64,000 nt of DNA from a virus. The notes below the pieces were generated by a model that saw nothing but the letters and a program-made list of their open reading frames with translations, ran no database searches and was not told the origin of the DNA. The translations under genes were made by a program, and so were the position numbers. The stretch lies in IMG/VR virus record IMGVR_UViG_3300036800_000031, positions 25,254 through 89,253 of that record; one strand, written 5' to 3'. Positions 21,510 to 47,644 of this stretch are shown in pieces. Within the stretch, counting starts at the first letter, position 1, and each line of letters opens with the position of its first letter.

Positions 21510-21510
21510 A

Positions 21511-21569: not shown

Positions 21570-21695
21570 TTACGAGAGGCTCACCCCTGGCTTGGCTTCG
21601 GTGGATGTATTCCACTGATAGCCGGGCACGAGGATCGACAGGCACGGCAACGCCGTCCCTCGATCTTCATAGCTCGGAAACAGTTGGAACCTCAT
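21570..21695 (-). CDS. putative leader peptide (41 aa) of tRNA-array attenuator
   Basis: MRFQLFPSYEDRGTALPCLSILVPGYQWNTSTEAKPGVSLS*; ATG 7 nt after the -10; last codons form the antiterminator strand. Confidence 0.7.
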   Translation of the reverse strand: MRFQLFPSYEDRGTALPCLSILVPGYQWNTSTEAKPGVSLS

Positions 21696-21702
21696 GACGT
21701 TC

Positions 21703-21730
21703 ATAGTACCCCGATTTCGAGGGGGGTCAA
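21703..21730 (-). promoter_or_regulatory. sigma70/SigA-type promoter of the tRNA array
   Basis: TTGACC-N16-TACTAT. Confidence 0.75.
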
Positions 21731-22368
21731 GTACCCTGTGCTGCCCGGCGGCTTGGAAGGCCCATCGTGTTGCCGATCTGCCCGCCGTTCATCCAGTGGT
21801 GCCAGGTCCAGGTGCGCTCCGGAAGGTGAGCGATTTTGTACCCGGAGCGGGCGAGCTTGATGGCGAAGTGGAACTCCTCCCCAGCCCGATTTCCGTCCTC
21901 ATCCTGACCCGGATCGAGAGGGTCGGTCCCGTCTTCCCAAAGGAACCCGTTGACCGCCAATGCCGCTTCGGTACGCACGAGGACGGTCACGGTGGTCTGG
22001 TGGGGATCGGCCAGATCGAACTCCCGTCCGAAGTTGTCAGGGAAGGGGTCCGAGCCGCCCATGACGTAGAACCAAGGGAACACCATGTCCGCCCCGGTCT
22101 CAATCTGCTTCTCCATCAGCCGTTGGAGGTGGTGCTCCCCGAACTCGTCGTCGTCATCCAGAAAGGCAACCCACTCGGTGTCCACCATTTCCAAGCCACG
22201 GGTGCGGGTGATGGCCGCTCCTACTCCGAAAACGTCGCTGGCGACGATCAGCGTATGGGGGAGAACGGTGCCCTTCTGGACGGAAGTAACCGCCCGGCCT
22301 AGAAGCTGTGCCCGCTCGGGGATGGTGGTGACGACGACGGTGATCCCCGGCCTTAGCTGGCTCGACAC
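21727..22368 (-). CDS. glycosyltransferase family 2
   Basis: ITVVVTT..R...L.RAV.SV, G.A.TR.RGL, WVAFLDDDD. Confidence 0.9.
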   Translation of the reverse strand: MSSQLRPGITVVVTTIPERAQLLGRAVTSVQKGTVLPHTLIVASDVFGVGAAITRTRGLEMVDTEWVAFLDDDDEFGEHHLQRLMEKQIETGADMVFPWFYVMGGSDPFPDNFGREFDLADPHQTTVTVLVRTEAALAVNGFLWEDGTDPLDPGQDEDGNRAGEEFHFAIKLARSGYKIAHLPERTWTWHHWMNGGQIGNTMGLPSRRAAQGT

Positions 22369-22994
22369 AGTGATCCCTCCTTGGTCCGTTGGAAATGACG
22401 ACGGTGCCGCTCGTCAGTTGGGAAAGACCTTCCGCAGGCATCACAATAAAACTCCCCCCTGGCTCTATCAGAGCGTTTTCGGGCTGCGTACTTTCGGCTG
22501 CTGACATTCCTGCACGTTCTACATGTTCGGTTTCCGTTCGCCCGGATAATCGTGTTGCTAAGGGTGAACCTATGACCCCGATTACAACAATCGAGAGCCT
22601 TGCGCCTTACTGCTATAGGCGAATGGGGAGCAGGGATAGGGCCTAGCTCCATGTGTCCAGGGTTCACACAGTGACGCAACCCGCACAAGTGAAGGGGCAT
22701 TTGTTCGTCGGGTATTGGGCCAACTAAAAGTTGGTAGGCATACTTGTCAGCCCTGACTGTCTTTGTCGGCCTCCCCTGTCCGGCTCCGAAGATCCCATAT
22801 CCTGTCCCTGGGTGTACAGCTGCCATCCAGACCCAACAACCGCCTTCCAGCTGTATATCGACTTTCTCCCAAAACCGTTCCACCGCATCCCTTCGTCGGA
22901 TCAGATTCCAACACTGGGGGTTACAAAATCTTTGACCACGACGACCCTGGAACTCATCCCCGCACTGTTCACAGATCAGACTTCGGTCAGTCAT
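22353..22994 (-). CDS. HNH endonuclease
   Basis: RFWEKVD...CWVW...GYG.F, LHLC..RHCVNPGH, C..GH...CRTC. Confidence 0.85.
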   Translation of the reverse strand: MTDRSLICEQCGDEFQGRRGQRFCNPQCWNLIRRRDAVERFWEKVDIQLEGGCWVWMAAVHPGTGYGIFGAGQGRPTKTVRADKYAYQLLVGPIPDEQMPLHLCGLRHCVNPGHMELGPIPAPHSPIAVRRKALDCCNRGHRFTLSNTIIRANGNRTCRTCRNVSSRKYAARKRSDRARGEFYCDACGRSFPTDERHRRHFQRTKEGSLCRAS

Positions 22995-23173
22995 CGTCCG
23001 GCGATCTTCTCGGTGAGCTTGTTGCCCGGCTCACAGTCGCGCCCGTCGTAGTAGTGGGTCATCCCATCGCCAGGCTGGCAGGCGGAGTCGCCCTTCTGCG
23101 GACCGTCCAGTTGGTCTGGAACGAACTGCTCGGTTATGCCGCATTGGCACTTTCTCGGTTTGGCATACCTCAC
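22991..23173 (-). CDS. hypothetical protein
   Basis: Small ORF with 4-nt overlaps on both sides. Confidence 0.5.
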   Translation of the reverse strand: MRYAKPRKCQCGITEQFVPDQLDGPQKGDSACQPGDGMTHYYDGRDCEPGNKLTEKIAGR

Positions 23174-23547
23174 TTACCCAGTTCCTTCCACGCCTCCAGC
23201 GCACCGTCAGCGGCTCGGTCAATCCACTCGTCGTAGTTGACGATTTCACATTCCGGGTTGGTGCAATGAGCCAGGTGCTCCGAGGTGATGAAGCACAACG
23301 GGCATCGGTCACTCCCGTCTTCGTTCTGGAACATCACCGACATCCCGACCGGGCTTTTCATCACGTTTCCGATGATCGCCCAGTGAGCCGACATCAGCGG
23401 ATCGAAGTTGTCGACGTTAGAGCCGTCTTGGGCCTCCGAGACTAGGTTCTTCACCGCTTGTTCCCCTCCCTCTGCTACCAGAGAGGAAAGTCCACGAGCG
23501 TCAATCGCCGCCCGCAATGCTGACCAGTGGTCGGTGCAGAACTTCAT
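23170..23547 (-). CDS. hypothetical protein
   Basis: ORF coupled by ATGA/GTGA overlaps. Confidence 0.7.
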   Translation of the reverse strand: MKFCTDHWSALRAAIDARGLSSLVAEGGEQAVKNLVSEAQDGSNVDNFDPLMSAHWAIIGNVMKSPVGMSVMFQNEDGSDRCPLCFITSEHLAHCTNPECEIVNYDEWIDRAADGALEAWKELGK

Positions 23548-24431
23548 GCTTTCATCGCCCTTCGGATGCCTTCCTCCAGGGTGACCTTCGGCTGGTAGTA
23601 GCGGAACATGAGGTCCGGGTTGGCGCAGCGGTAGAAGGCCCCGGTGGGCTTCTCAGATCGGGTCTGCATCTTCGGCTTGTATCCGAAGGCGGTGGTGACC
23701 ATCTCGGCCAAGGTGAGGAGGGAAGTCGGGACGCCCGTCCCCAAGTTGACCGGGCCTTGGAAGTTGGCCTCCAACATGGCCATCACCGCAGCCACGATGT
23801 CGTCAATGTGGATGAAGTCCCGCACTTGGTCCCCGGTTCCCCATACCGGAAAGGGGTCGGTCTTCTTCATCGCCCGGTCCAGGAAGGCGGTGAAGGGGTA
23901 GTCCACGCTTTGGTCGGTGCCGTAGCCGCTGAACGGCCGGAGGACCAAGATGTCGAGACCTTGGCGCTTCGCCTCACGGGCTTGGACTTCCCCGGTGAGC
24001 TTGGTCAAGCCATACATAGCGTCGGGGCAGGCGAGATTGTCCAGGTCGATTGAGTCCTCCCCGAGCCGCCGGGCCGCTGGGTACCGCTGAATGCTGATCG
24101 GGTAGGCGGCGGAGGAGGAGAAGTAGACGATCTTGGTCGGGGGGTTGCGCAGCGCCCACTGGAAGAACATCGAGTCGATGGCAAAGTCCTGAGCGACCGG
24201 CATGTCGTTGTGCTTCCGCTGGTCGATAGGGGGGATGGTGGCGGCGCAGTGAATGGCGAGGTCGAACTTCACCTCCACCGTCTGGAAGAACTTGATCGCG
24301 TCGATGGGTAGCGGCCCCCGGATGTCGAAACCGTAAGCGTCCCACCCGGTTTTTTCTAGGTAGGACTGGAAATGCCGCCCGACGAATCCGAGGTTCCCGG
24401 TGATCAGCGCCGTCTTCCGCTTCCGCCTCAC
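23544..24431 (-). CDS. NAD-dependent epimerase/dehydratase
   Basis: ITGNLGFVG Rossmann motif, SSSAAY, YGLTK, RPFSGYG, RDFIHIDD. Confidence 0.93.
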   Translation of the reverse strand: MRRKRKTALITGNLGFVGRHFQSYLEKTGWDAYGFDIRGPLPIDAIKFFQTVEVKFDLAIHCAATIPPIDQRKHNDMPVAQDFAIDSMFFQWALRNPPTKIVYFSSSAAYPISIQRYPAARRLGEDSIDLDNLACPDAMYGLTKLTGEVQAREAKRQGLDILVLRPFSGYGTDQSVDYPFTAFLDRAMKKTDPFPVWGTGDQVRDFIHIDDIVAAVMAMLEANFQGPVNLGTGVPTSLLTLAEMVTTAFGYKPKMQTRSEKPTGAFYRCANPDLMFRYYQPKVTLEEGIRRAMKA

Positions 24432-25033
24432 GGTTGGACTCCGACGATGACCTGGAAGCCGTAACCGTCCGGGTCACTGAGGGCGTGGTGGATCACCTGG
24501 AATCCGCCTTGTTCGATCAGCGCCCGGTAGCCGTCCAAATCCCAGGCCCAAGCGTGGCAGGCGTCGTGGCTCTCGTAAGTCTCAAAGGCCGGGCTGCTGG
24601 CGACGATGAACCGGGAGTGGCGACTGATCCGGCGCACGGCGGCGTGCGGGTCGGGCAGGTGCTCCAGGCACTCGGTGATAATGGTGAGCACGCCCCACTG
24701 AATCTCCTCGTGCTCGAAGTCCCGGTGGTGGACGGTGACCCCCCTCGTATTTTGAGCGTAAGCCACGTTGGCCGGGCTGAGGTCGTAACCCCACCTTTCG
24801 ACATCCAAGCCGCTTAGAAGGGACAGCAGGCCCCCGTCACCGGCCCCTAGATCACTAATGGTGGTGATGTCGGGGTAGTGGGCTACCAGGGAGTGAACTT
24901 CGACCGCGACGTCCTTCAAGCGGGTGACGTGCGCCCCTTGCTCCAGATGAGGAGCGTGCTCACGGGTGTCATACCAAGAGGGGATGAAGAAGTCCGGCGG
25001 GTCGGCCGGGTCGTACAGCTGGTGCTCGGTCAT
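24428..25033 (-). CDS. SAM-dependent methyltransferase
   Basis: DLGAGDG motif I, ECLEHLPDP. Confidence 0.88.
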   Translation of the reverse strand: MTEHQLYDPADPPDFFIPSWYDTREHAPHLEQGAHVTRLKDVAVEVHSLVAHYPDITTISDLGAGDGGLLSLLSGLDVERWGYDLSPANVAYAQNTRGVTVHHRDFEHEEIQWGVLTIITECLEHLPDPHAAVRRISRHSRFIVASSPAFETYESHDACHAWAWDLDGYRALIEQGGFQVIHHALSDPDGYGFQVIVGVQP

Positions 25034-25263
25034 GGTCCTGCGATCAGATCGGCGGAGACCATGAGTTCGTTCCCGCTCATGGGGTCGATCCGGTACTTCC
25101 AGGTGCCGTTGTCGGCGACGATGGTAATGACCCCGTTGACGACGCTGACCCCGCTCAGGGCGTCGTGGCTCATCAGCCCGATCAACTCCCGGCTGAAAAG
25201 CTCCCGCGGCCCGGCGTCGTGGACGAGGGTGGCCCCGGTGGGGTCCCGCTCAATGGTGATCAC
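25030..25263 (-). CDS. hypothetical protein
   Basis: GTG start overlapping the upstream TGA; 3' part of the listed 207-aa ORF. Confidence 0.55.
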   Translation of the reverse strand: MITIERDPTGATLVHDAGPRELFSRELIGLMSHDALSGVSVVNGVITIVADNGTWKYRIDPMSGNELMVSADLIAGP

Positions 25264-25952
25264 GACAGTTCTCGCAGCTTCTGGACGTCGAGCACCATCT
25301 GGCCGAGTTGGTACCGGTTCCAGGCTTCCAGGTCGTGGCTGTACATCTCGGGGCTGTTGACTTCTTCGTAGCGAGAATCCCAATCGCTCTTGCCGTTGGC
25401 GTGGGGGTGGAGGTGTTCGATCACCACTTCGGGGAGGTAGCGGAGCCGTTGGGTTTGCTCTCCCCAGGACTTCCAGGCGTTGTCGAGGTAGAGGTGAGTC
25501 TGCTCCGGCGGGCACATATAGCCGAGGGTCTGGATGATCCGGCTGTCCATGAACACTGCCGTCGGCAGGTTGATCCCTTGGAAAAGGTCGTTCCCGTAGA
25601 CGATGCCCGGTCCCTGAATCGACTCCAGCGCATCGCAGATCAGCCGGTCCCAACCTTCGGTACGGGGAAGGTGGTCATCCCCCATGAAACCGACGTAGGG
25701 GAAGCCGCTGGCCCAAACCAGGGCCTCTCGGTTGAGAGTAGGGCCGAGCCGGATGCGGGGGCCACAGCTGAGACCGACGAACCCGCCGCTCCCCATAATG
25801 GCGTCGATGTCATCCTCCAGGAAGGAGTCGTCGTCGTTGTCGAGAACGATCTCCAAACTGGCGGTGGCTCCGGTGGTTCCCCAAGAATCGCAAAGTCTCT
25901 TGACGTTCTCCGGGCGTCCACGGGAGGGGACGATGACGCAGAGGTCGTTCAC
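25260..25952 (-). CDS. glycosyltransferase family 2
   Basis: VIVPSRGRP, FMGDDH, HLY.DN.W, IEHLHP. Confidence 0.85.
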   Translation of the reverse strand: MNDLCVIVPSRGRPENVKRLCDSWGTTGATASLEIVLDNDDDSFLEDDIDAIMGSGGFVGLSCGPRIRLGPTLNREALVWASGFPYVGFMGDDHLPRTEGWDRLICDALESIQGPGIVYGNDLFQGINLPTAVFMDSRIIQTLGYMCPPEQTHLYLDNAWKSWGEQTQRLRYLPEVVIEHLHPHANGKSDWDSRYEEVNSPEMYSHDLEAWNRYQLGQMVLDVQKLRELS

Positions 25953-26200
25953 TGGTCCCTCACGATGCGGGGGTCGCCGTCGGGTTTGAAGATTTCCGGC
26001 CCTTGTTCCCCCACGATGTAGAGCTTGTCCTTCACTACTCCGCCAGTAGCAAGCTCACTGAACCCTTGGAACTCCAAAGCGGTCTTGTGCGCCGGGCAGA
26101 GCCAGACCGGCACCGTGAAGGTCCGACTCACCACCACGGTTCCACCTTCCCCACATCCGTCCACGGCGCAGGGGTTGAGGGGGTTATCTTCGTCCATCAC
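25949..26200 (-). CDS. hypothetical protein with tape-measure-like GEQGPE motif
   Basis: C..C...C..H N-terminus; ATGGVV...YIVGEQGPEIF. Confidence 0.55.
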   Translation of the reverse strand: MMDEDNPLNPCAVDGCGEGGTVVVSRTFTVPVWLCPAHKTALEFQGFSELATGGVVKDKLYIVGEQGPEIFKPDGDPRIVRDQ

Positions 26201-26225
26201 GGCTCTCTGTCTAGTTGATATGCGG

Positions 26226-26303
26226 TAGCGGGGGTGGGATTCGAACCCACGACCTCCGACCCGAAAGTGAGTCGGCGAGCTAACCGGGCTGCTCTACCCC
26301 GCG
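26226..26303 (-). tRNA. initiator-tRNA-like gene with aberrant anticodon arm
   Basis: CGCGGGG-TA-GAGC...GCTC fMet-type body, C1:U72 mismatch, canonical T arm; loop TCACTTTCGG (10 nt) lacks CAT. Confidence 0.65.
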
Positions 26304-29602: not shown

Positions 29603-29805
29603 TGCTGGGGAGGGGAGGTGGAAGGCTTGACGTTCGGCCGGTCCGGAGCGTCTTCGTCCGGCTGGTGGAGGGCTTCTACGAGGTCAGGGTCTGGATGGAA
29701 GTCGTCGTCTGGCCCGAAGATCATCCACGGTGGCTTACCTTGCGCCGCCCGATCTGGCCTCTTGAACTTTGCCATTGCTTCCTCGTAGTCGGATTTATCG
29801 CTCAC
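29599..29805 (-). CDS. hypothetical acidic protein
   Basis: GTGA overlap with the polyprotein stop. Confidence 0.55.
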   Translation of the reverse strand: MSDKSDYEEAMAKFKRPDRAAQGKPPWMIFGPDDDFHPDPDLVEALHQPDEDAPDRPNVKPSTSPPQQ

Positions 29806-32800
29806 TTGGCAAAAGCCTCCAACTGCTTCAAGTATACGTGGGTGATAGCGCCGACCTTCTTGACGCTCTCGACTTGGAACTTACCGGCAGAAATCGTTTC
29901 CACTTCGCTGTCGTAGTTGACGACTCTCCCGACGTCCAACGACACGGTTCCAGCCGGAGCGTGAATCCAAAAATCGCGGGGCGGGTTGCTACCGGACCAG
30001 GCATTCGGGTCAGTAGACCAAGACGTCAACGGGATGTCAACCTTGTTGCCGACCGTCGTGAGGGAAGCGATAACCGAAGCGGGCATTCCACTCTTGTACA
30101 GCTTCCGCTGGAAGGCTTGCTTGTTCGGTTCTCCCTTTTCAATGTACATCTGAGCGATCTGTTTCGCCGCCTTCGCTGCCTGCCCGTTGCCAGGGTCATG
30201 TCCTTGGGCCATCTTGTCGAGCGCAGTGTTCATGGCGGAATGGCTATAGCGGTAGTTGGCCTTCCACATCCCCACCGACCCAAGCTCCGAGGAGGTGAAG
30301 GACAGCTGAGTGTCGCTCTGGTTGTTCTTGTACGGGTTCCCGCTCTGTACCGACGTATAGGCACCGTGACCGCTCTTGTCGGCGAGCACCCCTTGGTGGA
30401 TGATCGACTTAGAGGAGGCATTCGGGTGTTGGTCGGGGTTCTTCTTCAAGTCAACCGCGGCCTTACCGGCTCCCTGAGCCAGACCGGCAAGGTGAGCCTG
30501 GTCGATGATCCCGGATTCGTCACTGGGCTGGCCGAGGGCCGTCGCTTGGTCGAGATACCCCTGGGCGGCTCCGTTGATCTGTTCCGGCGTCTTCCCTTGG
30601 AGATGTGCCGCTATTGCTTGGTCATAACCCTGAGCGATGGCTTGGTTGTAGCCGACTTCGGAGGCTGTGGTGGCGTGAGCGGGCTTCGTCCCGTGGGGGA
30701 TCGTGTCGGGGACGGTCTTCGGGGTCTGTGTGTCCTTTACTTCAAACGGAGTTTTAGACGTGTAGAAGGAGTTGACCTTCTCGATGAACTCCTTCTCCTG
30801 GGCCTTCTTCGCTTCACTCTTGTGGGTCTTCGCCCATTCCTGCTGACTTGCCATCGCCCCGGCGAACTTGCCCTTGGCGATTGCAGCTTCTTCGGTCCCA
30901 GGCTGGGAATCCTTCTGAGCCTTGTCCAACTTTGCCATTTCGGTGTTATCAGGCGGCGCTGTCGTAGATGCAGATGAGTAGGCAGCGTCGTAGGCGTCGT
31001 TGTGGTAGCCGGGGTGCTGGTGGAAGGGTTCCCCGTTGCTGGCCGTGTCCCCGGTGAAGTGGATCGGTTGAGCCTTTGCCTTCAATGAAGAAGGCATCCC
31101 GCTGGTGGAGGGGGAATATCCCGGCCCGGCCGCTGCCTTCGCCGCGCTGGCCTGAGCGGACCCGGTAGAGAACTGGGCGTGCCCCGGCTTGATCTTCGTC
31201 ACCTTGGTGGTCGAAAGGCCAGGCTTGAAATCACTCTCTCCGGCGTTCGGGTTCCCGTTCTCCTTGACGTAGAAGTGAGTGCCCATCGAGTTTGTGGCGG
31301 TGATGGTGTGGCCGACGTTGCCGATCAGGATTTGGTCCCCGGCCTTCAAGTTCTTCGCCATCACCTGGCTCTTGGTCGGCCCCTTCGGCTTCGGAGTAGA
31401 TCGTCCACCGACAACCTTGGAAACCAGTAGGTTCGGATTGGTGCTGATGTGTTGGAACGGGCTTCCAATGGTCTTCCCGGTACTGTTCATCTTTTGGAGA
31501 GTGAAAGCCCCCGACGGGCTGACCGCCATCACCTTGTACTTAGTACCGCCCTTGGTCTTCCAGACGTCGCCGGGCTTCAAGTCCTTCTTCGCTACCTCGA
31601 CGGTGCCCGGTGACAGTGAAACCTGTGGTGATGCCTGTGGCGATGGAGTGCTGACCGACGCCTTCACCCCGCCCTTCTGGTTGGGACCGCCCAGCGGGCC
31701 TCCTGCGGCCTTGTGCTCGGCTGCTGCGGCTTTGATGCCGTGGTTCATGCCGGAAGACTGGGCGAAGCCGCTCATCTCCCCGGCCTTCTTCGACTTCTTC
31801 CCCTTGTTGTAGTGGCTGAACGCTGCCAACTGCATCTCGTGGACGGTGGAACCGTTCGCCGCCATCTGCTTGCCGAGGAGGTACCCCTGGTTGAAGCCTT
31901 CTTGGTAGTGGGGCTTGTTCTCGGCGGGGATTTCGGGAGGCAGAGACTTCGGGAAGGGGACAGCCGGAGCTTCGACCGGCTTCCCACCCGGACCTTCGTT
32001 TTTGACGGTGAAGCCTGGCCCGTAGTTGGAAACGGGCGGAGGGTTGCTGAACGAGTCGCTGACGTGACCCGGCTGGACGGTGGACTTGTAAACCGTCGCG
32101 GCCAAGAGATGAGCTTGGATGTCTGCCTGGCGGGAAGCCAGAGTGTTGAGAACTTCTTCCCGGTGAGCCTTCGGGATTCCGGCGTCCTGCATCTTCTGAT
32201 CGACGTTTTCCAAGTTGAGGTTCGCCGCTACCTGGAGACTGCCCTTCACCTGGAGCGGGTCCGGGTTCGATCCGTAGAGGAACTTCCCCTGGTCACTGGC
32301 GAGCAATGACTTGTCCTCTACTACTTCCTTGCCCCAACTGACCTTCACTGCGCCCATCGCCCGGAACTTGCCCGCTCCGCCGATGTCGATACGGACGACG
32401 TTGCCGTTCGCGTCCTTGAACACGTTGTCATTGGTCAGCCCGGCGACGTCGTGATTGGCCGTGAGGACGTCGATCCCGAACCCCTGGACGCCCTTTACCT
32501 TCTCCGTCGGGAGTCCCTGGAGGGGAGTCAGTCCTTCGATTTTCTTGCTGACCACGGAGAGTGAACCGTCGCCATTCGTCAAAATCGTGGTGTGGGGAAC
32601 CGTGATCCCGGCGGCTTCGTACACCTTGCCCATCGCCACTTCGTTGTAGGCGTGCTCGTTCGAGTTCGCGGGCTTCACGAGGTAGCTCGATCCGTCAGCC
32701 GCCTTGTACCACTGACCCCCGTTGCTCCCCAGCGGACCGCTGATCTTCTGCATAGTGGAGAGGTCGGCGGCGTTCTTCGGGGTGTGATCCATGCCGAGGG

Positions 32801-35800
32801 AAGCGGCGGTGCTCAGGGGCTTCGGAGCCGGACTGGCTGATGCCTTCGGAGTGACGACCGTGGTGTCGGCGGTCTCTCCGGCGGCGGTGACGTGTCCCTG
32901 GTAGCTGTAGCCGTGGGCCTTCCGGGTGTCCATCACCTTGATGTGGGCGGCGACAGCGGCGGCGGTGGATGAATATTCCTTGGAAGCGGTAGAGACATGA
33001 GCGCCGGGCTTCGTACTCCCGTAGGCCGTGTGGTGGGTGGCGGTGCCGTCGGGGTGCTGGATGACGGTGGACTCGTAGAACTTGTCGCTCGTGCCGGAGT
33101 GGTTCTCGACTCGGGTGGAGGTATAGACCTTGCCGGGTTGGATGGTGGTCGGGGCGGAGACACTCGGCTCGATGGGCTTCGGACTGACCAGCGGCTGGCT
33201 CTTGGCGGTAGCGGCGTATTCCTTCAGCCCGGCGCTGAGTCCTTCCAAGCGGGCCTTGTCTATCCCGGCGTGAGAGTTGATTGCGGCCTCATCATGCTGG
33301 CCCGCTTGGGTGAGGGCTTCTTCCTTGGTCATACCGAGCTTCGTCGCTGATTCGATGCCGACCTTGTGCCCGGCCGTGAAGGCGTCGTGCTTCGGGGAAC
33401 CGGGGAGGTACTTGGTAGCGGGACTTTCGGTGTGGAGCTTCTGTTCGGCGACGTATTTGTCGAACTGATCCTTCAGTTGCTTGTCATAGTCCGCAGCCGA
33501 TTGGCCCGGTGCCCGAGGGTGGGCGAGGTACGGGTGCTCCTCGTGCCACTTCTTCCAATCCCGAGTCTCCAGTTCTTCGTCGTCCCGTCCGGCCAGAGCC
33601 GCCTTTGCCGCTTGGTGCTTCTTGTGAGCGATCATCAACTGGGTGGCTTCGTTGCCGATAGCCGGGACCATGACCGCGATCAGCCCGAGCAGGACCGGCA
33701 GAGCCAACCCTCCGGTAGCGGCGGTAAGGGCAATAGCGGCCGCGACTTCCCCGAGCTTGATGATGAAGCTGGTCTTCGCTTCCTTGTGCTTCTCGTCGGC
33801 GATCTTGGTTTCTAGCTCGGTCACCCGGCCGTGGAGATGGGCGGCTTCGGCATCACTGACGATTTGGGCGGCGTGAGCCTTGTCGATGCTGGTGCTGGCT
33901 TCACTGGCGATCTTGTGAACCTGCGCATCGGTGACCTTCGCGGCGTTCGCCGGGCTGATCTGCGGGGTGCGGGATTGCTTGGCGGCTTCGGTATAGGCGT
34001 GAGCCGCGGCCAGGTGGACGGTCTGCGCCTTGCTCTCTCCGATGGACTTGGCGACTCCGGCGGCTCGACGGTGCTTGGCGGCTTCGCTGCGGAGGGCGGC
34101 TTCGTCTCCGGCCTTCGGACCGTGAGTGGCCTCTTGAAAGTGCTTCACGGCGGCGTTGTTGTAGGTGGTGACGCGGGTACCGACGATGCCGTGCTTGGTG
34201 GAGAGCTTCTTGAACTCATCGCTGCTCAGCGGGCCGGTGACCTTGCCGTGCTCGTCCATCCATCCCTGGAAGCCGGACTTCAGCCGGGCGTCGTAGGCCG
34301 CTGCGCTTTCACCCTTCGCCCGAGGGTGGGGAACGTAGGGATGCTCCTCATGCCACTTTTTCCAGTCTCGGGTTTCCAAGTCGCCTATGGATCGGCTACC
34401 TCCGTGGAGGTGATCCTGCCAATCGGCGTGGCCCGCCTTGAATGCCTCGTTGATATCTTCATCCGGTTCGGAGCGGACACCGTAGCTCTGCTGACTGACG
34501 TAGGCGTGGGTGGTGCCAGCGCGGTTCTCCACCCGGTCGATGTGGAACTTGCCGCCGGAGATAACCTCTCGTTCCTCGGCGTACTGATTGCCCGGCAGGG
34601 CGCTGATGTCCAGACCCTTAGCCCCACTGGCGGCGTGGAAAATGACCGACTCCGTGCGAGCGCCCTTCTGCTTGGTGCCGGTGGCCCCGTGAGCGAACCC
34701 GTTAGCCACCGACGCCTTTTTCGACCACGATGCGCTGTCCAAAGCGAAGGTCTTACCGGGTGTCAGGTGCTGGACCTCGGTGGGCGTCATAAACACGCCT
34801 CGGTGCAGTGTCCCCTGCCGAGCGGTCTTGTCTTGGAGCAGCCGGAGGATGTGCTGGGCCTTGGCCCGCTGGACGTCAAAGTGCTCGACGGGCAAATCTC
34901 GAACCTGGCTGCGGTGTAGCTCGTCCTCGAACGGAGTTCGGGCGGCAGCCTGGTGGTGCCGGAAGGAAGTCGTCCAAGCCGCTATCGCCTGACTGTTTCG
35001 ATCTTCTTCGGTGGCACCCTCCCATTTGGCTCGGGCGTTCTTCGTCTGTCGATCATGGGACTCGTTGAACTGGATTCCTGCACTCCCCGATAGGGAGTCC
35101 TGGCTTTTCTGATCCAGACGCAGGATCTTGCGGCTTGTCGGCACGAGGTTTTGCTTGAACCCGGTCCCCGTTCCCGCCTCCGCCGTGGGGTCGGTGGTGT
35201 TGACGATCCAGCGCCCCGGCTGTTTGCCGCCGATGCTCTTGAAGGCGTTGGTCACCCGACGGTGCTGACCGCCGATGAGAATGTGATCGCCCGGCTTCAA
35301 CCGCCCGACGGTGACCTTCACCCCGGTTGGCCTCGCCGCCAGATGCTCGGCGAACGCACTCTTGATCCGCTCGTCATACTGCTCGGCGGTTTCGTTCTTC
35401 GTCCTCGGGTGAACTTCATACGGGTGTTCTTCGTGCCATTTCTTCCAGTCTCGGGTTTCGAGGTCTTCGTGGTCATCGGTCTTCCCGCTGTTCTTCCAGA
35501 AGGCTTCGTCGGCTGCGGCCGTCTTGCTGCCCTTCTTCGTTAGCCACTTCGGCAGTTGGGTTTGCTTCAGCCCCTTCAGCCCCTTCGGCTTGGAGGTGGA
35601 CGGAGAGAGCTCCAACTTCGGCACCTTGGACTTCGGTGAGCTAGGAGCCTTCGGCAGGGAATCCCCCGGTCCCTTGTCGCCGGGGCTGAAACTCGTCTTG
35701 AAGTAGGGCTTCGGCTTCGGCGGCGGGGGAGGGAGGACGATCTTCGGGAAGGAAAGCTCGGGGTGGAGCTTCCCGTAGGCCTCATAGGCAGCTTGAAGGG

Positions 35801-36431
35801 TCTGGAGGTCGCGATAGCGCCCCTGGAGATTGGTGGACTGGCTGATCGAGTTGAGGGCCTCTTGCGGCGTGGCCCACTTCAGGGCGTTCGTCTCGCCGTT
35901 CGCCTCCATCGCCGTCCGGTCCACCTGACCGGCGGTGTCGGTCGCCAGATAGAAGTGGTTGGTCGAGGAGGTCGTCCCGCCCCTGAACGCTCCGGGAACG
36001 TGCCCGACGATTTGGGGAGCATGACCGGTCTCCTCCAGGGTCTCTCTAAGGGCAGTGTCAGCTGGGTGTTCACCGTTGTCCGGTCCCCCCTTGGGAAACG
36101 TCCAGGCGTACCCGTCGAAGTGGTTGGTTGGCTCCCGAAGTAGCACTCGTCCAGCAGAGTCAAATGTAATTGCGCCATAGCGGGGGTTGCCTCCCTTGGG
36201 CCATTCGCCTTCGGCGTGGAGGTCACGGCTCCCGTAACTCCCGGTGAGTGGGTTGTGGCTGACCGGCGGTTCCTTCGGATCCTTCGGGGCGGAGTGGCTC
36301 TCTTTCGGGGTGTGCCCTTCGAGCATGGCGGCGAACTCAGCGGCGTGGTGGCTGCCCTGACCTTCGTGTTCGGCGTCCCACTTCGCCCAGTCGCGCTGGC
36401 TGAGGTCAGACCGTGAAGGAGCAAGCGCCAT
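29802..36431 (-). CDS. 2209-aa multidomain head-module polyprotein (NUDIX, ADP-ribosyltransferase x2, TM, WGR-like, atypical kinase-like)
   Basis: Nudix box GGPDNGEHPADTALRETLEETG; ART R-S-ExE triads (LHRG/SWS/EERE and FQRK/TSWS/SEVE); SDKFYE...AYG; GSNGG...YLVK...NEV...NHDV.G...DN...IDIG. Confidence 0.8.
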   Translation of the reverse strand: MALAPSRSDLSQRDWAKWDAEHEGQGSHHAAEFAAMLEGHTPKESHSAPKDPKEPPVSHNPLTGSYGSRDLHAEGEWPKGGNPRYGAITFDSAGRVLLREPTNHFDGYAWTFPKGGPDNGEHPADTALRETLEETGHAPQIVGHVPGAFRGGTTSSTNHFYLATDTAGQVDRTAMEANGETNALKWATPQEALNSISQSTNLQGRYRDLQTLQAAYEAYGKLHPELSFPKIVLPPPPPKPKPYFKTSFSPGDKGPGDSLPKAPSSPKSKVPKLELSPSTSKPKGLKGLKQTQLPKWLTKKGSKTAAADEAFWKNSGKTDDHEDLETRDWKKWHEEHPYEVHPRTKNETAEQYDERIKSAFAEHLAARPTGVKVTVGRLKPGDHILIGGQHRRVTNAFKSIGGKQPGRWIVNTTDPTAEAGTGTGFKQNLVPTSRKILRLDQKSQDSLSGSAGIQFNESHDRQTKNARAKWEGATEEDRNSQAIAAWTTSFRHHQAAARTPFEDELHRSQVRDLPVEHFDVQRAKAQHILRLLQDKTARQGTLHRGVFMTPTEVQHLTPGKTFALDSASWSKKASVANGFAHGATGTKQKGARTESVIFHAASGAKGLDISALPGNQYAEEREVISGGKFHIDRVENRAGTTHAYVSQQSYGVRSEPDEDINEAFKAGHADWQDHLHGGSRSIGDLETRDWKKWHEEHPYVPHPRAKGESAAAYDARLKSGFQGWMDEHGKVTGPLSSDEFKKLSTKHGIVGTRVTTYNNAAVKHFQEATHGPKAGDEAALRSEAAKHRRAAGVAKSIGESKAQTVHLAAAHAYTEAAKQSRTPQISPANAAKVTDAQVHKIASEASTSIDKAHAAQIVSDAEAAHLHGRVTELETKIADEKHKEAKTSFIIKLGEVAAAIALTAATGGLALPVLLGLIAVMVPAIGNEATQLMIAHKKHQAAKAALAGRDDEELETRDWKKWHEEHPYLAHPRAPGQSAADYDKQLKDQFDKYVAEQKLHTESPATKYLPGSPKHDAFTAGHKVGIESATKLGMTKEEALTQAGQHDEAAINSHAGIDKARLEGLSAGLKEYAATAKSQPLVSPKPIEPSVSAPTTIQPGKVYTSTRVENHSGTSDKFYESTVIQHPDGTATHHTAYGSTKPGAHVSTASKEYSSTAAAVAAHIKVMDTRKAHGYSYQGHVTAAGETADTTVVTPKASASPAPKPLSTAASLGMDHTPKNAADLSTMQKISGPLGSNGGQWYKAADGSSYLVKPANSNEHAYNEVAMGKVYEAAGITVPHTTILTNGDGSLSVVSKKIEGLTPLQGLPTEKVKGVQGFGIDVLTANHDVAGLTNDNVFKDANGNVVRIDIGGAGKFRAMGAVKVSWGKEVVEDKSLLASDQGKFLYGSNPDPLQVKGSLQVAANLNLENVDQKMQDAGIPKAHREEVLNTLASRQADIQAHLLAATVYKSTVQPGHVSDSFSNPPPVSNYGPGFTVKNEGPGGKPVEAPAVPFPKSLPPEIPAENKPHYQEGFNQGYLLGKQMAANGSTVHEMQLAAFSHYNKGKKSKKAGEMSGFAQSSGMNHGIKAAAAEHKAAGGPLGGPNQKGGVKASVSTPSPQASPQVSLSPGTVEVAKKDLKPGDVWKTKGGTKYKVMAVSPSGAFTLQKMNSTGKTIGSPFQHISTNPNLLVSKVVGGRSTPKPKGPTKSQVMAKNLKAGDQILIGNVGHTITATNSMGTHFYVKENGNPNAGESDFKPGLSTTKVTKIKPGHAQFSTGSAQASAAKAAAGPGYSPSTSGMPSSLKAKAQPIHFTGDTASNGEPFHQHPGYHNDAYDAAYSSASTTAPPDNTEMAKLDKAQKDSQPGTEEAAIAKGKFAGAMASQQEWAKTHKSEAKKAQEKEFIEKVNSFYTSKTPFEVKDTQTPKTVPDTIPHGTKPAHATTASEVGYNQAIAQGYDQAIAAHLQGKTPEQINGAAQGYLDQATALGQPSDESGIIDQAHLAGLAQGAGKAAVDLKKNPDQHPNASSKSIIHQGVLADKSGHGAYTSVQSGNPYKNNQSDTQLSFTSSELGSVGMWKANYRYSHSAMNTALDKMAQGHDPGNGQAAKAAKQIAQMYIEKGEPNKQAFQRKLYKSGMPASVIASLTTVGNKVDIPLTSWSTDPNAWSGSNPPRDFWIHAPAGTVSLDVGRVVNYDSEVETISAGKFQVESVKKVGAITHVYLKQLEAFAK
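33527..35463 (-). repeat. three dispersed copies of LETRDWKKWHEEHPY.HPR within the polyprotein
   Basis: Copies near 35420-35463, 34333-34381 and 33527-33573; degenerate fourth copy (LSQRDWAKWDAEH) at the N-terminus. Confidence 0.85.
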
Positions 36432-36473: not shown

Positions 36474-39206
36474 CTACTTGCCGTGGGCGGCGTCAGCCGT
36501 CGCCCCGACCAGCGCCTTGCGGTTCGCGGCTTGCTGAGTCTGGATAGCGACCAGGGCTTTAAGGGAAGAAGCCGGGATGAGTCCGGACAGGTTCGTGGCG
36601 CTGAGCACTCCCTGGCCCATACTCATGTCGGGAGGCAGGAACGCCTGAGAACAGCGGCAGTTGATTACCTCATCCGGAGGAGCGGCCGGGTCGCCCGGAA
36701 ATAGCATCGGCCACCCGCCGACGTAGAACGGTCGGCTGACGGGGACGGTCTGGCCGTCGGCAATTGCGTGGGTCGGGCGAACCCGGTCGTCATGGAGGCT
36801 GAGCCAAGCGTGGCTACCGACCGTTCCGTCGGGGAGCTTGGCGGCGTAGGCCTGGGCGGCTTGGTTCAAGCTGCCTACCGTCTCCGTCCGGGCGATCATT
36901 GCGGCCCGTACCGAGTCAGCCGTGTCGAAGATGTCGTTGATGTGCCCGGCGAGTTCGGTCGCTCCCTCACCCTCCACCACACCCTTCTGGATGGCGGCGT
37001 AGATGGCTTGGCGGGTGGTCTCGGTGATACCGGCGGCTTGGCGCTGGGCACGGACGGCCAGAATCTCGGTGACGTGGTGGAGGCTGTCCCCGTCGTCCAG
37101 GCTGACGGGGGCATTTACCTGACTCCTCACCCGGCCTCCGGCGACTTCCGCCGCCAGGGCGTAGTGCTGAGCGAGCGCCTTCTCCAGGGCGTTCTGCCAG
37201 AAGGTGGCGTCGAAAACGGCTCCAGGGTCAACCGCAGCGGCGGTAGCGCCCGCCAATACGTCAGCGTTGGCCGGATTGACCCCTGTAAGGCCACCTACGG
37301 CGCTAACGGAGCCGACCGGGGGAACGGGGCCACCGGCTTGTGCCGCCCGCTTCAGCATCGTTTTACCGCGCTTGCCGGTCAGGCGGCTGATCACGGCTTG
37401 GCGCTGCTTGGCGAAGTGGTCCTTCACCATCGCTTCCATGCCCGGCTCGATTTTCCGCTGATCGGTGGTGGATTGGCTCTTGGCGGCTTGGAGGTGACGG
37501 CGGTAGTTGCCTTTGACGTGCCCGGTGGGGACGTGCTCGTGGCCGAGCGGCCCGGCGTGGCGCTTTCCGGAGGTGGACCGGTGAACGGCGGCGGTGATCG
37601 GCTTTCCACACTGTTCACAGGAGGCCAGGTCGCTCCCGACGAACCGATGCGTCTTCAAGACTCCGGCGATGGCGGCGTCTTCCTTTTTGTCCGGGCCGAC
37701 CGGTAGGAGGGAACCGGCGTTGTCGGGGGTGGACTCGCCGATCATGTCTCGGAGGCGCAGAGCTTCCGCTTCGATTTGCTCCAAGGGGATGAACAGTTCC
37801 TGGTCTTCACGCTTGGTCAGCGTCAACGTGGGGGCACCGAACTGGTCCTTGCCCCAGGTGAACCCGGCCGGAGGCTTCTTGGCGGCGTATTGGGCACGGG
37901 CCGGAGCCGGGAGCTTGTTGATGGCGTTCGCCATTGCCTGGCTGCTCTTGGTCACCGGCATCTGAGCGGCGGCGCTGGCGGCTACCTGAGCGGCGGTAAC
38001 CGTCGGAGACGGAGCGGCCGCAGAAGACGTTGAAGCCGCCGGGGCGGCGGAGGTGGAAGGGGCGGGGGTGGAGGGAGACCCGGAAGAGGATGTTGAGGGT
38101 GAGCTAGACGAGGTTGAAGCTGAGGTTGAAGTGGAGGTTGAGGAAGCCGGAGTGACCAGCGCCAACGACCAGCCCTTCGAACCACCATCGACCCACTGAT
38201 GCCCGGCCGGGGGAGAAGTCGTTGACATAAGTTGCCGCTGGCTGGCCGGGAGGGCATTGATCGTGTTCGCCTTGGCTATCGACGCCTTAGACGCCGGAGT
38301 GGCCGAAGCTACCGCATGGCTGGCGGTGGCCTTTTGGGCGCTGGACATATTTTGAGCGGTCACCTGGGTCAGTGTCGGGGAACCGTCGGCTCCCTTCCCC
38401 CAGGTGTATCCGGCGGGGGCGGCTCCGGTCGAGAGGGCCTGGCGCTGGTCAGCGGGGAGGGCATTGATCTTGATGGCTTTGGCGCTCGATCCGGCCGTGG
38501 CGGCGGAACTGGCGGTGAGAGCGGTCTGTGCTGACTTCTTGCTGGCAGCGGTCGCCTTGTTGGAGGCGGTGGTCTGAGCAGTTTGAGCCTTCTTTGCGGC
38601 GGCAGCAGCGGCCTTTTGAGCGGCGGCGGCTTTCGCAGCATTCGCCTTCACGGCGGCGGCGGCTTTCGCGGCCCCTCCGGCAGCAGCTTTGGCGGCTCCG
38701 GCCCCTAGTGCCGCCTGAACCCCGGCCAGTTGGCTCACGGTGAACTTTCCGGTGACGGTTTGGTTCATTGCCTTCTGGTAGGCGCTCGCCAAGATGAAGG
38801 ACTGGGCATCGGTGGTCCCGAGGGAGTTGTTGACATCTTGCTGATTGGCGGGCTGGTTCCCCGGTCCCCACTGGTTTCCTTCAAAGGGGTGACCGGCCGC
38901 GAACGACCCGGAAGCCCGGAAGCCCAACTTCGTTGGCTCCGCCCGGCCGGTGGAGGCTTTCATCGCTTCCCACTGGGCCAAGGCGTCAGCGGCCTTCGCC
39001 CGAGTCTTCTCGGTGACGTGGCCCCCGCCGCGTGCCCAGTTCTGAACGGCCCCGATAGCGAGTTGGATAGCCCCCGACTCATCGTGGCCGCTGCGGATCA
39101 GCGCATGGGCAATGGCCCGGATGAAGTCCGGCAAGCCTCCCCGTTCGGTCACCCAGTTCTTCTTGGTGCCGAGGGGGCTGACGTCGTAGCGGGTTTCGGT
39201 GGTCAT
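36474..39206 (-). CDS. MuF (SPP1 gp7-like) minor head protein with long N-terminal extension
   Basis: C-terminal RA.MIARTE, W....DDRVRPTH..ADGQ, PGDP.AP..EVINCRC. Confidence 0.88.
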   Translation of the reverse strand: MTTETRYDVSPLGTKKNWVTERGGLPDFIRAIAHALIRSGHDESGAIQLAIGAVQNWARGGGHVTEKTRAKAADALAQWEAMKASTGRAEPTKLGFRASGSFAAGHPFEGNQWGPGNQPANQQDVNNSLGTTDAQSFILASAYQKAMNQTVTGKFTVSQLAGVQAALGAGAAKAAAGGAAKAAAAVKANAAKAAAAQKAAAAAAKKAQTAQTTASNKATAASKKSAQTALTASSAATAGSSAKAIKINALPADQRQALSTGAAPAGYTWGKGADGSPTLTQVTAQNMSSAQKATASHAVASATPASKASIAKANTINALPASQRQLMSTTSPPAGHQWVDGGSKGWSLALVTPASSTSTSTSASTSSSSPSTSSSGSPSTPAPSTSAAPAASTSSAAAPSPTVTAAQVAASAAAQMPVTKSSQAMANAINKLPAPARAQYAAKKPPAGFTWGKDQFGAPTLTLTKREDQELFIPLEQIEAEALRLRDMIGESTPDNAGSLLPVGPDKKEDAAIAGVLKTHRFVGSDLASCEQCGKPITAAVHRSTSGKRHAGPLGHEHVPTGHVKGNYRRHLQAAKSQSTTDQRKIEPGMEAMVKDHFAKQRQAVISRLTGKRGKTMLKRAAQAGGPVPPVGSVSAVGGLTGVNPANADVLAGATAAAVDPGAVFDATFWQNALEKALAQHYALAAEVAGGRVRSQVNAPVSLDDGDSLHHVTEILAVRAQRQAAGITETTRQAIYAAIQKGVVEGEGATELAGHINDIFDTADSVRAAMIARTETVGSLNQAAQAYAAKLPDGTVGSHAWLSLHDDRVRPTHAIADGQTVPVSRPFYVGGWPMLFPGDPAAPPDEVINCRCSQAFLPPDMSMGQGVLSATNLSGLIPASSLKALVAIQTQQAANRKALVGATADAAHGK

Positions 39207-46091: not shown

Positions 46092-46103
46092 CCGTCGCTC
46101 CAG

Positions 46104-46334
46104 CTACATGCGGGGGCGTGAGGGGGTACGGCGGCGCTGGGCGTTGCCAGAAGCGTTGCCGGAACTGCCAGACCGGCGGGCTGCTGGGCGCTGAAACTTG
46201 GTTCTTCCATTACCTGGTTTTGTGTCAAGGACCGTCACAGTAGTCCTCGCTGGGCTTTGCTGGTTGGATCGGGGGGTATCGACGTAGCGTTTGGCCTTGG
46301 AGTCCCAGGTCTGCTGAGTCAGTTCGGCGATCAT
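46104..46334 (-). CDS. small basic hypothetical protein
   Basis: GGAG SD upstream of ATG. Confidence 0.5.
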   Translation of the reverse strand: MIAELTQQTWDSKAKRYVDTPRSNQQSPARTTVTVLDTKPGNGRTKFQRPAARRSGSSGNASGNAQRRRTPSRPRM

Positions 46335-46430
46335 GGTTGAGTTGTCTCCCGCCTACAGAGATTCCTAACTTGTCCCTGGTCAGAGACTTGTGGCTCCAAA
46401 GGGGATGGGCGGTGTGGTACAACATCGGCT

Positions 46431-46769
46431 ATGGCCTAGATACCTGATCCCGTACCCGCCAAGCTGTACGTCGTCGTTGACGAGTCGCTTCCACCGGGTT
46501 TGCAACTTGCTCAGGCTGCTCATGCGGCGTTCCAGCTTTCGGTCAATCACCCCGAAGCCGTGGACCGGTGGCACGCTGAGTCGAACTTCCTCGTGGTGCT
46601 CTCTCACCCTGATCCGTTGTCGCTGAGTGGTGACTTCGTGGTGGAGGTGGTGACCGAGCCGGACCTTCCCGGTGACCCGGTGACGGCGGTGGCCTTCCTG
46701 CCTCATCCAGGGGTGGGCCGGGCTTTGTCTTCCCTGCCCTTGGCGCTCCGGGAGCCGTCTATGTCCTGA
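46431..46769 (+). CDS. Pth2-like peptidyl-tRNA hydrolase with in-frame TAG at codon 3
   Basis: ATG GCC TAG ATA... in frame with KLYVVVDESLPPGLQLAQAAHAA...LVVL...EPDL....TAVA. Confidence 0.75.
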
Positions 46770-46775
46770 CTCCAT

Positions 46776-46843
46776 GCCAGGATGCGGCGATGGGATAGCT
46801 CCTCGGGGCTAAGTCCGAAGGTTCGACTCCTTCCCTGGCACCA
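46776..46843 (+). tRNA. degenerate tRNA-like gene, anticodon undetermined
   Basis: GCCAGG/CCTGGC-ACCA and canonical T arm GAAGG-TTCGACT-CCTTC; no normal D or anticodon loop. Confidence 0.5.
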
Positions 46844-46844
46844 A

Positions 46845-46913
46845 GCCTCAGATGGGATTGACCAGGGCGTCTAAAGTCCACGGTCCACGGTTCGACTCCG
46901 TGCTGAGGCACCA
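46845..46913 (+). tRNA. amber suppressor tRNA(CTA), reduced D arm
   Basis: GCCTCAG/CTGAGGC-ACCA; GGGC-[GT-CTA-AA]-GTCC; canonical T arm. Confidence 0.68.
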
Positions 46914-46914
46914 A

Positions 46915-46987
46915 GCCTTCCTAGCTCAACTGGTAGAGCAGGGCCTTCTAACGGCTCACGATCCGGGTTCGATTCCTGGGGGAGGCG
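46915..46987 (+). tRNA. amber suppressor tRNA(CTA), canonical cloverleaf
   Basis: GCCTTCC-TA-GCTC-AACTGGTA-GAGC-A-GGGCC-[TT-CTA-AC]-GGCTC...TTCGATT...GGGAGGC-G. Confidence 0.88.
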
Positions 46988-47291
46988 CAACGGTGGTGAG
47001 GTGGACCAGGCCGAACGGGGACTGAACGCTCGGGAACGGCGGCTTGGCGCTGGTGGGTGAGTAAGGGCCGCGGTGGATCAACTCCCGGCTTCCGTCGTAC
47101 CGGGCTGGACCCCACCACCGGAAGCATCCTTCAGACGGGCAGGTCCAGATGGAGATGTCCAGGGGTGGGCGGCAGGTGTGCGCCGGGTTCGGAGGGGGCA
47201 TACCGCTCGGCCGGGCTGGAGGGAGCTTGATGACTTCCCCCTCTTTTCTCGGGATGCGTTTGGTGCTCCGGTCCCGGTGAATCTTCATCAT
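46956..47291 (-). CDS. hypothetical protein
   Basis: Coupled ORF; 3' end overlaps the suppressor tRNA antisense. Confidence 0.45.
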   Translation of the reverse strand: MMKIHRDRSTKRIPRKEGEVIKLPPARPSGMPPPNPAHTCRPPLDISIWTCPSEGCFRWWGPARYDGSRELIHRGPYSPTSAKPPFPSVQSPFGLVHLTTVAPPPGIEPGS

Positions 47292-47644
47292 GCCGGTGGC
47301 GGATCAGTTTCCCGGCGGAAGCGGGCGTCGTGGGCGGCTCGCTCCACCCAGCGGATGAACGGGGCATCGTCGGCGATGCGCTCGATTTGGTCGATGAGGT
47401 CGAAGGGGACTTCAACCGGAATCGTGATCCAAGCCCGACCGGCCCCCGAGTCGCCCCAGCAGTTCACCCGACCTTCTCGGTGGAGGCCTCCAAGCTGGTA
47501 GCGGACCTTCTGGTAGGTCCAGGTACCGGCGTAGTTCCCGACCTGGAGATCGTCCACTAGCTCGCTGACTAGAGAGGGGCCGCGCTGGTGAAGCGTCTCC
47601 CACACCCGTTCCTTGCGACGGGTCATCTCGGCTCGGGTGGTCAT
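47288..47644 (-). CDS. winged-helix DNA-binding protein (putative)
   Basis: VWETLHQRGP..VSELVDDL...VRYQLGGLHREGRV pattern. Confidence 0.5.
   Translation of the reverse strand: MTTRAEMTRRKERVWETLHQRGPSLVSELVDDLQVGNYAGTWTYQKVRYQLGGLHREGRVNCWGDSGAGRAWITIPVEVPFDLIDQIERIADDAPFIRWVERAAHDARFRRETDPPPA

Follow-up and report, generated by a model that had tools for sequence, protein, structure and literature searches.

A 64,000-nt stretch of DNA from a soil phage (positions 25,254 to 89,253 of IMG/VR record IMGVR_UViG_3300036800_000031; here called the window) carries a compact plus-strand cassette in which a gene for a Pth2-like protein is preceded by a two-codon leader ending in an in-frame amber codon, and is followed by a gene for a tRNA with the anticodon CUA. 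Comparison of this cassette with its relatives makes it probable that the Pth2-like protein is made only if the co-located tRNA(CUA) suppresses the amber codon. The window takes up the last 64 kb of a single-contig assembly of 89,253 bp, the G+C content of which is 62%.

The cassette spans 46415-46988 and was read directly. An extended -10-like box, TG-n-TACAAC (46415-46423; TG at 46415-46416, TACAAC at 46418-46423), is separated by a 7-nt spacer from the leader ATG GCC TAG (46431-46439), and the TAG, which is codon 3 (46437-46439), is in frame with the Pth2-like open reading frame (ORF; 46440-46769) behind it. The first-pass annotation of this DNA had described an ATG GCC TAG 7 nt behind such a box, with the frame continuing into the ORF, and the direct reading bears this out. 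The ORF has 109 codons after the TAG, ends in a TGA (46767-46769) and opens ATA CCT GAT; the codon right behind the TAG is ATA (46440-46442), a non-canonical start. The first canonical start codon after the TAG is a TTG at 46500, which is residue 21 and lies inside helix 1, downstream of the strand 1 sequence KLYVVV (46461-46478); no ATG, GTG or TTG is present between the TAG and this TTG when the frame is read directly. The public gene call for the contig is the 89-amino acid (aa) form that begins at the TTG (P0001).

The term amber-gated cassette is used here for a start codon with 0-11 further codons and an in-frame TAG at most 13 codons before strand 1, with a tRNA(cta) gene within about 2.5 kb. 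In the window the leader is of two codons, the TAG is 7 codons before strand 1 and tRNA(cta) genes begin 76 and 146 nt past the ORF stop. The window was compared with 27 loci from IMG/VR, 23 from metagenomes and 8 from GenBank phages, the phage-record loci being added via tblastn, and the resultant 59 loci were clustered at 90% protein identity into 47 lineages. One lineage with Ns in its leader (L022) was counted as ‘other’, and two loci found in a scan of genome contigs (L059 and L060) are outside the 59-locus table. It is clear that the arrangement recurs: 32 of the 47 lineages are gated, with leaders that start with ATG (26), GTG (5) or TTG (1), continue for 0-11 further codons and end in a TAG 1-13 codons before strand 1. 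Before the TAG there is a single start codon in 14 of the 32, two codons in 6 and four codons in 8. TAG bounds 171 of the 558 comparable open frames in the same loci (0.306); 32 of 47 is well above this level with a P of 1.4e-7 which, since the lineages are related, is nominal, as are the other P values for lineages given below. In 22 of the 32 gated lineages no ATG, GTG or TTG lies between the TAG and strand 1. This and the conservation of the TAG lend comparative support to the earlier proposal that the full protein needs read-through of the UAG.

The gated lineages range in G+C content from 23% to about 65%. They include the mycobacteriophages Bxz1 (ATG TAG GTG) and ScoobyDoobyDoo (GTG TAG GTG) and the huge uncultured phages LR756500 (ATG AAG TAG) and LR756501 (ATG TCG TAG). 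In the last of these the gene (L057, 3001-3312) has in-frame TAGs both at codon 3 and within helix 2, and is followed 2.3 kb further on by two tRNA(cta) genes. Outside the table, L059, on a contig binned with an actinobacterial metagenome-assembled genome, has TTG TAG and two tRNA(cta) genes, and L060 is cut at its 5' end. Searches with the protein returned 208 phage records at about 40% identity, 206 of them from Mycobacterium phages, annotated ‘peptidyl tRNA hydrolase’, together with 20 metagenome proteins beyond the window's own. There are 202 cluster C records with at least 90% identity to the 100-nt promoter-leader stretch of Bxz1; the TAG itself was read in both of the two genomes examined. 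GenBank starts the gene at the GTG behind the TAG in each (Bxz1 gp154, L028 1983; ScoobyDoobyDoo gp79, L029 1983), leaves the two-codon start-stop unannotated and labels the tRNA ‘tRNA-OTHER’ or ‘tRNA-Pyl(cta)’.

A tree of 43 rows was drawn from the loci, leaving out L051 and L052 (truncated), L057 (internal TAG) and L044, which was taken as a near-copy of L045, a pair that the 90% clustering had kept apart. With the T4-like and Lak rows as outgroup, the best tree requires 6 changes of the gate label within the ingroup of 39 rows.

The gate and the tRNA occur together. A tRNA(cta) gene was found in 28 of the 32 gated lineages against 1 of the 15 others (Fisher 1.2e-7), and when only loci with at least 1 kb of downstream sequence are considered the counts are 23/25 and 1/10 (7e-6). 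The tRNA(cta) gene is mostly 6-700 nt downstream on the same strand and is present in two copies in 6 lineages; the sole non-gated lineage that has one is L022, the lineage with Ns in its leader. The relatives that T4-like phages of Aeromonas and Vibrio carry are ungated: they start normally, and no suppressor tRNA is found near them. Within the window, 35 minus-strand tRNA genes lie at 14806-26303, and on the plus strand ARAGORN made only two calls, both cta. Since some 20 kb separate the cassette from the tRNA array, which is on the other strand, the link is to this tRNA and not to tRNA arrays generally. Two further predictions made from the window alone, that the early TAG would be conserved in homologs with a CUA tRNA nearby and that the gene is tied to a UAG-reading tRNA, are thereby supported.

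The closest comparisons show that the leader itself is maintained. L031, whose protein is 57% identical to that of the window, has TTGACA, 17 nt, TACAAC, 6 nt and then ATG GCC TAG ATA CCT GA, so that the 17-nt leader ATG GCC TAG ATA CCT GA is identical in the two. The proportion of differing synonymous sites (pS) between them is 0.68, which is near saturation, and the ratio of non-synonymous to synonymous change (dN/dS) is about 0.2; identity of the leader although synonymous sites are near saturation argues that the leader is under constraint. In L030 (63% identity) the leader is ATG ACT CCT ACC TAG GTG CCT GAC, that is, ATG plus 3 codons plus TAG, and the box GGTA(C/G)AAC is kept in both L031 and L030. 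Close metagenome homologs have been called from an M at the position of the window's ATA, and in L030 this ‘M’ is the GTG right behind the TAG.

The cassette also appears to be self-contained, as had been suggested: it has a promoter-like box of its own, and its flanking genes are not common to the relatives. Proteins flanking it in the window found no match in six related loci, from which it follows that the cassette moves as a unit. The DNA of 46300-47100 gave no similarity match to 50,697 phage records. A Logan assembly of a soil run is identical to the window across 46300-47100, and this run is possibly the source of the window DNA.

In the AlphaFold model, built with 14 close homologs (mean predicted local distance difference test score, pLDDT, 83; predicted template-modelling score, pTM, 0.78), strand 1 comprises residues 8-14 and helix 1 begins at residue 19. 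The TTG, at residue 21, is past strand 1 in this model, and a TTG start would therefore delete the first strand. When the model was compared with the PDB using Foldseek, the 12 best rows listed were all of the Pth2 family, with TM scores of 0.52-0.72 by query length and a probability of 1.0; the best entries were 3erj, 2zv3, 1q7s, 1wn2 and 1xty (archaeal and human Pth2). As modelled, the protein is of the Pth2 fold, and the earlier reading of a Pth2-like fold whose first strand is upstream of the TTG start holds.

Profile searches agreed with the fold to different degrees. A profile built from 21 members of the family finds solved Pth2 chains with E values from 2e-8 to 8e-4, the 109-aa form matches phrog_1866 (E 5.8e-12, residues 5-90), and the more distant homologs P0015-P0021 have a precomputed assignment to PF01981. 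The hidden Markov model check that had been proposed for the read-through protein gave a mixed answer: it agrees with a Pth2-like fold, but the match of the 109-aa form to Pfam PTH2 (PF01981), at 14.9 bits (E 0.031), is under the 23-bit cut-off. The 89-aa TTG form matched no Pfam family. Motifs common to Pth2 and the window protein family are AQ..HA and a C-terminal motif. In HMMER alignments the Lys before MVAQ of 2zv3 falls at a variable position of the family (L24, alignment A1 numbering) and the Asp of RDAG in 2zv3 falls at the invariant E76. This Lys and Asp are reportedly the catalytic pair of archaeal Pth2, from work on S. solfataricus, an assignment that could not be confirmed in the literature searched. 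The peptidyl-tRNA hydrolase activity of the Pth2-like protein is thus putative, and ‘a phage Pth’, as it was first called, is to be taken as a name only.

Three tRNA-like genes follow the ORF, as the first-pass annotation had noted; of the two that it took for amber suppressors, however, one is certain and the other doubtful. The third element (46915-46988, plus strand) is a canonical tRNA(CUA) called by both ARAGORN and Rfam, with its CTA at 46948-46950, a discriminator G and no encoded CCA. It is the sole element of the three with Rfam support (46915-46987, 54.2 bits against a gathering score of 29), it folds as a clean cloverleaf (-31.7 kcal/mol) and it is the presumed amber suppressor. Its closest matches are tRNA(cta) genes of other loci (81% for L011, 77% for L031, and 76%), whereas the best match with a sense anticodon among 186 other tRNAs compared was 72%. 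By eye, the discriminator base varies between G, A, U and C among 34 distinct tRNA(cta) sequences.

The second element (46845-46913, plus strand) has no D arm, a long anticodon-like arm with the 7-nt loop GUCUAAA, a T arm and an encoded ACCA. ARAGORN calls it a tRNA(cta) with CTA at 46871-46873, the anticodon being at position 27; it has no Rfam tRNA match, only a sub-threshold one to mascRNA-menRNA (24.7 against 42.5 bits), and the hairpins of L030 and L031 that align with it are without CUA. It is doubtful as a suppressor. The first element (46776-46843, plus strand) combines an acceptor stem and a T arm with an irregular hairpin in the middle, encodes ACCA and was called by neither ARAGORN nor Rfam; it aligns with an element of L030. 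Since in its fold the CTA sits in a stem, it is not a decoder.

Elements of this general kind, with a T-loop...CCA portion, an acceptor stem and encoded CCA but without a normal anticodon arm, lie after the gene and ahead of the first tRNA(cta) in 15 of 26 lineages (for example the window, 46776-46913, and L028, 2380-2640), the canonical tRNA(cta) itself often being without encoded CCA; they could be processing signals, substrates or decoys. In L004, L010, L011, L033 and L043 the first tRNA(cta) is 70-74 nt long and has a reduced D arm and a normal CUCUAAA anticodon loop, and it is the sole cta tRNA found in L004, L010, L033 and L043. Other unusual RNA genes were seen: in L015 (3354-3508) the tRNA(cta) is directly followed by a tRNA to which ARAGORN gives the four-base anticodon ctta, and in L027 (4975-5351) a phage tmRNA lies 1.6 kb behind the cassette. 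Odd tRNAs, with 2- or 4-base anticodons or Ile(aat/gat) according to ARAGORN, adjoin the ungated relatives L007 (2845-3010), L008 (2843-3010), L047 (2327-2495) and L052 (657-732). In L007 and L008 the loop of the second tRNA is of 9 nt (yCUAAUGAr), and the 3' end of this tRNA adjoins or overlaps the Pth2-like ORF; L008 is without a clear start codon, and in L007 an in-frame ATG lies inside the T arm. The minus-strand array of the window (14806-26303) has tRNAs for each of the 20 amino acids, Ile(tat) and two Met(cat) among them.

The signals around the leader bear on how it would be translated. A hexamer TAnnn(T/C) ends 5-9 nt before the leader start in 21 of the 32 gated lineages, 17 of these 21 have TTGAC(A/G) 16-19 nt upstream of it, and five other lineages have a Shine-Dalgarno-like sequence instead. 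In the window, a -10-like box that ends 7 nt before the ATG implies that the predicted transcript is leaderless or nearly so. Leaderless mRNAs are common in actinobacteria. In a leaderless layout an internal start would have no ribosome-binding site. One terminator-like site (47221-47238) was found in a scan of 46100-47400, which is within shuffle expectation. In 30 of the 32 gated lineages a purine follows the TAG (background 0.56), and this context is said to favour suppression, in work of 1983 by Bossi and by Miller and Albertini.

The best explanation of these observations would run as follows. The transcript would start at or just before the ATG at 46431, and its 5'-terminal AUG would be the only efficient start. 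At codon 3 the ribosome would either undergo release by release factor 1 (RF1), giving no product, or accept the charged phage tRNA(CUA), giving the full-length protein. Since RF1 and charged tRNA(CUA) would compete at the UAG, the output of protein should follow suppressor activity relative to RF1. The inserted amino acid is probably unimportant because the position is in a variable N-terminal tail. More speculatively, the hydrolase might act on products of the same tRNA or of read-through, and the gate might couple the supply of hydrolase to suppressor activity, as feedback or as feed-forward. A fully closed loop, in which the Pth2-like protein discharges its own tRNA(CUA) or clears its peptidyl forms and, being itself made only when that tRNA reads the UAG at codon 3, holds suppressor activity at a set point, is conceivable and on balance unlikely. 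Such a homeostat would need a set point high enough for the phage's use of read-through and low enough to spare its own TAG-terminated genes, and the T-loop...CCA elements could be further substrates or processing signals in it.

Several observations weigh against dependence on suppression. Four of the 32 gated lineages have no tRNA(cta) in the DNA fetched; these are L046 (255 nt of downstream sequence), L051 (0 nt), L041 (2.5 kb) and L050 (1.5 kb). The well-supported branches of the tree force only 2 independent changes of the gate label. A scan of 46100-47400 for sigma-70 consensus found no promoter, the window having no -35 match, and the search for sequencing runs that hold this stretch found one DNA run and no RNA run. 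As TAG ends 11 of 82 of the phage's own ORFs, a cost would be expected from strong suppression, and an active suppressor ought also to lengthen the phage proteins whose genes end in TAG. Furthermore, the codon after the TAG is of the form NTN in 25 of the 32 gated lineages (ATN 13, GTN 10, CTG 2), the background for T at codon position 2 being 0.27; this may reflect a start codon, still in use or fossil, a need for a hydrophobic residue or an effect of context. Finally, 10 of the 32 gated lineages, cluster C included, have an ATG or GTG at or no more than 3 codons after the TAG, and these could make the protein without read-through.

The last two points would suit an alternative in which the 70S ribosome that has terminated at the leader UAG begins again at the codon next to it (ATG, GTG, ATH or CTG), so that the TAG tunes expression through RF1 and the tRNA(CUA) is linked for some other reason. 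In favour of re-initiation are an NTN codon behind the TAG in 25 lineages (ATG or GTG in 7), bare start-stop leaders in 14 and the placing of the start at the GTG behind the TAG by cluster C annotators. We nonetheless consider it distinctly unlikely: it leaves the association between gate and tRNA(cta) unexplained, 7 of the 32 lineages have ACA, AAC, AAG, GAA or GGC after the TAG and 6 more have GTA or GTT, two positions off AUG, and the window itself has ATA, a very poor start codon. Nor can it account for the second, internal TAG of L057, which lies where L056 has Glu; reading TAG as sense lengthens the neighbouring ORFs there no more than a TGA control does, and since this second TAG is inside the conserved domain, read-through is favoured over re-initiation. 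Alternatively, the leader could stand alone as a minigene like those of lambda bar, dropping off peptidyl-tRNA that is cleared by a Pth2-like protein made in some other way, the shared frame being incidental. The leaders are indeed very short and behind consensus promoters, the adjoining gene has a peptidyl-tRNA hydrolase fold, and lambda bar minigenes depend on Pth. This too is hard to sustain, and we judge it improbable, because the 14 start-stop leaders would release fMet-tRNA, which is not a Pth substrate, and because all 32 gated lineages use TAG as the stop (which the definition of the gate requires), with no other lineage having a TAA or TGA behind a start right before strand 1; the near-exceptions are L055, where a GTG precedes a TGA that lies 12 codons upstream, and L022, whose leader contains Ns. 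Nor did any of the 59 loci pair a TGA or TAA gate with a tRNA of the corresponding anticodon. The mini-ORF is, moreover, in frame with the Pth2-like ORF, and 22 of the 32 lineages are without another way to start that ORF, although this test for a stand-alone mini-ORF is weaker than it looks because in-frame continuity is part of the definition of ‘gated’.

It could also be supposed that TAG is recoded throughout the genome (‘code 15’) and that this gene is merely one of many, as the phage has a tRNA(CUA) (46915-46988) and relatives of the protein are carried by Lak phages, which are recoded. This is very improbable and was rejected, as TAG is an ordinary terminator with no excess of open frame behind it. 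ORFs of 2209, 1136, 987 and 910 aa are open under table 11; 82 minus-strand ORFs selected by composition end in TGA (61), TAG (11) and TAA (10), and among these selected ORFs of the phage no excess of open frame behind TAG was detected (Mann-Whitney P 0.41). Where a TAG is flanked on either side by 50 or more open codons, no convincing interrupted gene was seen, the starts behind such TAGs being within 2-14 codons, as at ordinary junctions. Since TAG is an ordinary stop elsewhere in the phage, this is a matter of a single gated gene and not of genome-wide recoding. Programmed read-through fusions at TAG-terminated genes were likewise considered as a candidate, and no excess was found. One 910-aa ORF (36474-39206, minus strand) does end in a TAG (36474-36476) in frame with the 2209-aa ORF (29802-36431) that starts 14 codons later, so that amber read-through would fuse the two; it is one case, with no excess across all ORFs. 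Lastly, the gene could be decaying or the sequence wrong, with the TAG and ATA a private mutation or error, or the real product could be the 89-aa TTG form; the public gene call and the M from which close metagenome homologs are called, at the place of the ATA, are in line with this. It is scarcely credible given that L031 has the same leader, ATA included, which disposes of the worry first attached to the annotation that the TAG might be private to the window or a sequencing error. The ‘M’ of L030 being a GTG right behind a TAG, the dN/dS of about 0.2, the second, identical assembly (though possibly of the same reads) and the lack of strand 1 and of any Pfam match in the TTG form argue in the same direction.

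Suppressor-dependent gene expression in phages is of a kind already known, and the cassette is proposed as an instance of it; no description of the amber-gated Pth2 layout was found in the literature searched. In recoded Lak and crAss-like phages a phage suppressor tRNA causes TAG to be read as an amino acid. There, as proposed here, a phage tRNA(CUA) decodes in-frame TAG in phage genes, and read-through has been proposed to time gene expression. The cassette differs in that TAG is an ordinary stop elsewhere, that one small gene is gated near its 5' end and that the tRNA is in the same cassette. The gene for RF2, prfB, is autoregulated through an early in-frame UGA at which a +1 frameshift occurs, and so senses its own product. 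An early in-frame stop that ties synthesis to stop recognition, in a gene whose product belongs to the translation machinery, is common to both, and such a conserved early stop in a gene of the translation-factor type is found in 32 of the 47 lineages; the cassette, however, keeps frame, and the sensed factor would be a tRNA competing with RF1 rather than the gene's own product. Lambda bar minigenes are free-standing and become toxic once host Pth is in short supply. They resemble the cassette in having a two-codon ORF and stop behind a strong promoter and a tie to peptidyl-tRNA hydrolase biology, but in the cassette the mini-ORF is in frame with the hydrolase-like gene and its stop is always TAG, matched by tRNA(CUA). 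With respect to Pth2 itself (PF01981), the window protein shares the fold and the AQ..HA and C-terminal motifs, and differs in being under the Pfam cut-off, in the variability of the position of the 2zv3 Lys and in the invariant Glu at the position of the Asp.

PTH2 in jumbo phages has been put forward as a possible ribosome-rescue factor (PMC7824862); in the part of that paper that was available, the word ‘suppressor’ is absent and the sole ‘amber’ is in a reference title. The Xanthomonas phage XacN1 is an example of a phage with the standard code that has ‘orphan’ suppressor tRNAs; it carries CUA tRNAs together with a gene for a peptidyl-tRNA hydrolase (PMC5852040). As far as the available portions of the report go, its authors read through 18 amber stops at ORF ends without finding a target and reported no look at 5' leaders (PMC5852040). 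In the literature searched, which comprised main texts outside subscription journals, no paper was found in which a Pth2 gene with an amber leader is connected with a phage tRNA(CUA).

Standard-code phages often carry suppressor tRNAs, the targets of which are reported as unknown, at least in the portions of the XacN1 paper that were available (PMC5852040), and the layout described here offers a concrete target that can be tested, a single small gene concerned with the upkeep of translation whose lock would be the codon read by the tRNA. More than 200 sequenced cluster C mycobacteriophages have this layout, the TAG itself having been read in 2 of them, and as these grow on M. smegmatis mc2 155, the proposal could be tested at the bench without new isolates. 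If it is true, the annotated start of a widely annotated phage gene would be corrected, and the cassette would provide a natural, orthogonal-looking tRNA/UAG pair in actinobacteria. Were the homeostat also true, it would explain the ‘orphan’ suppressor tRNAs of standard-code phages and would be a natural counterpart of engineered amber-gated circuits. Dependence of the Pth2-like gene on its neighbouring tRNA(CUA) would in itself be a new way of controlling translation, and a compact one, with a tRNA as the gate of a gene.

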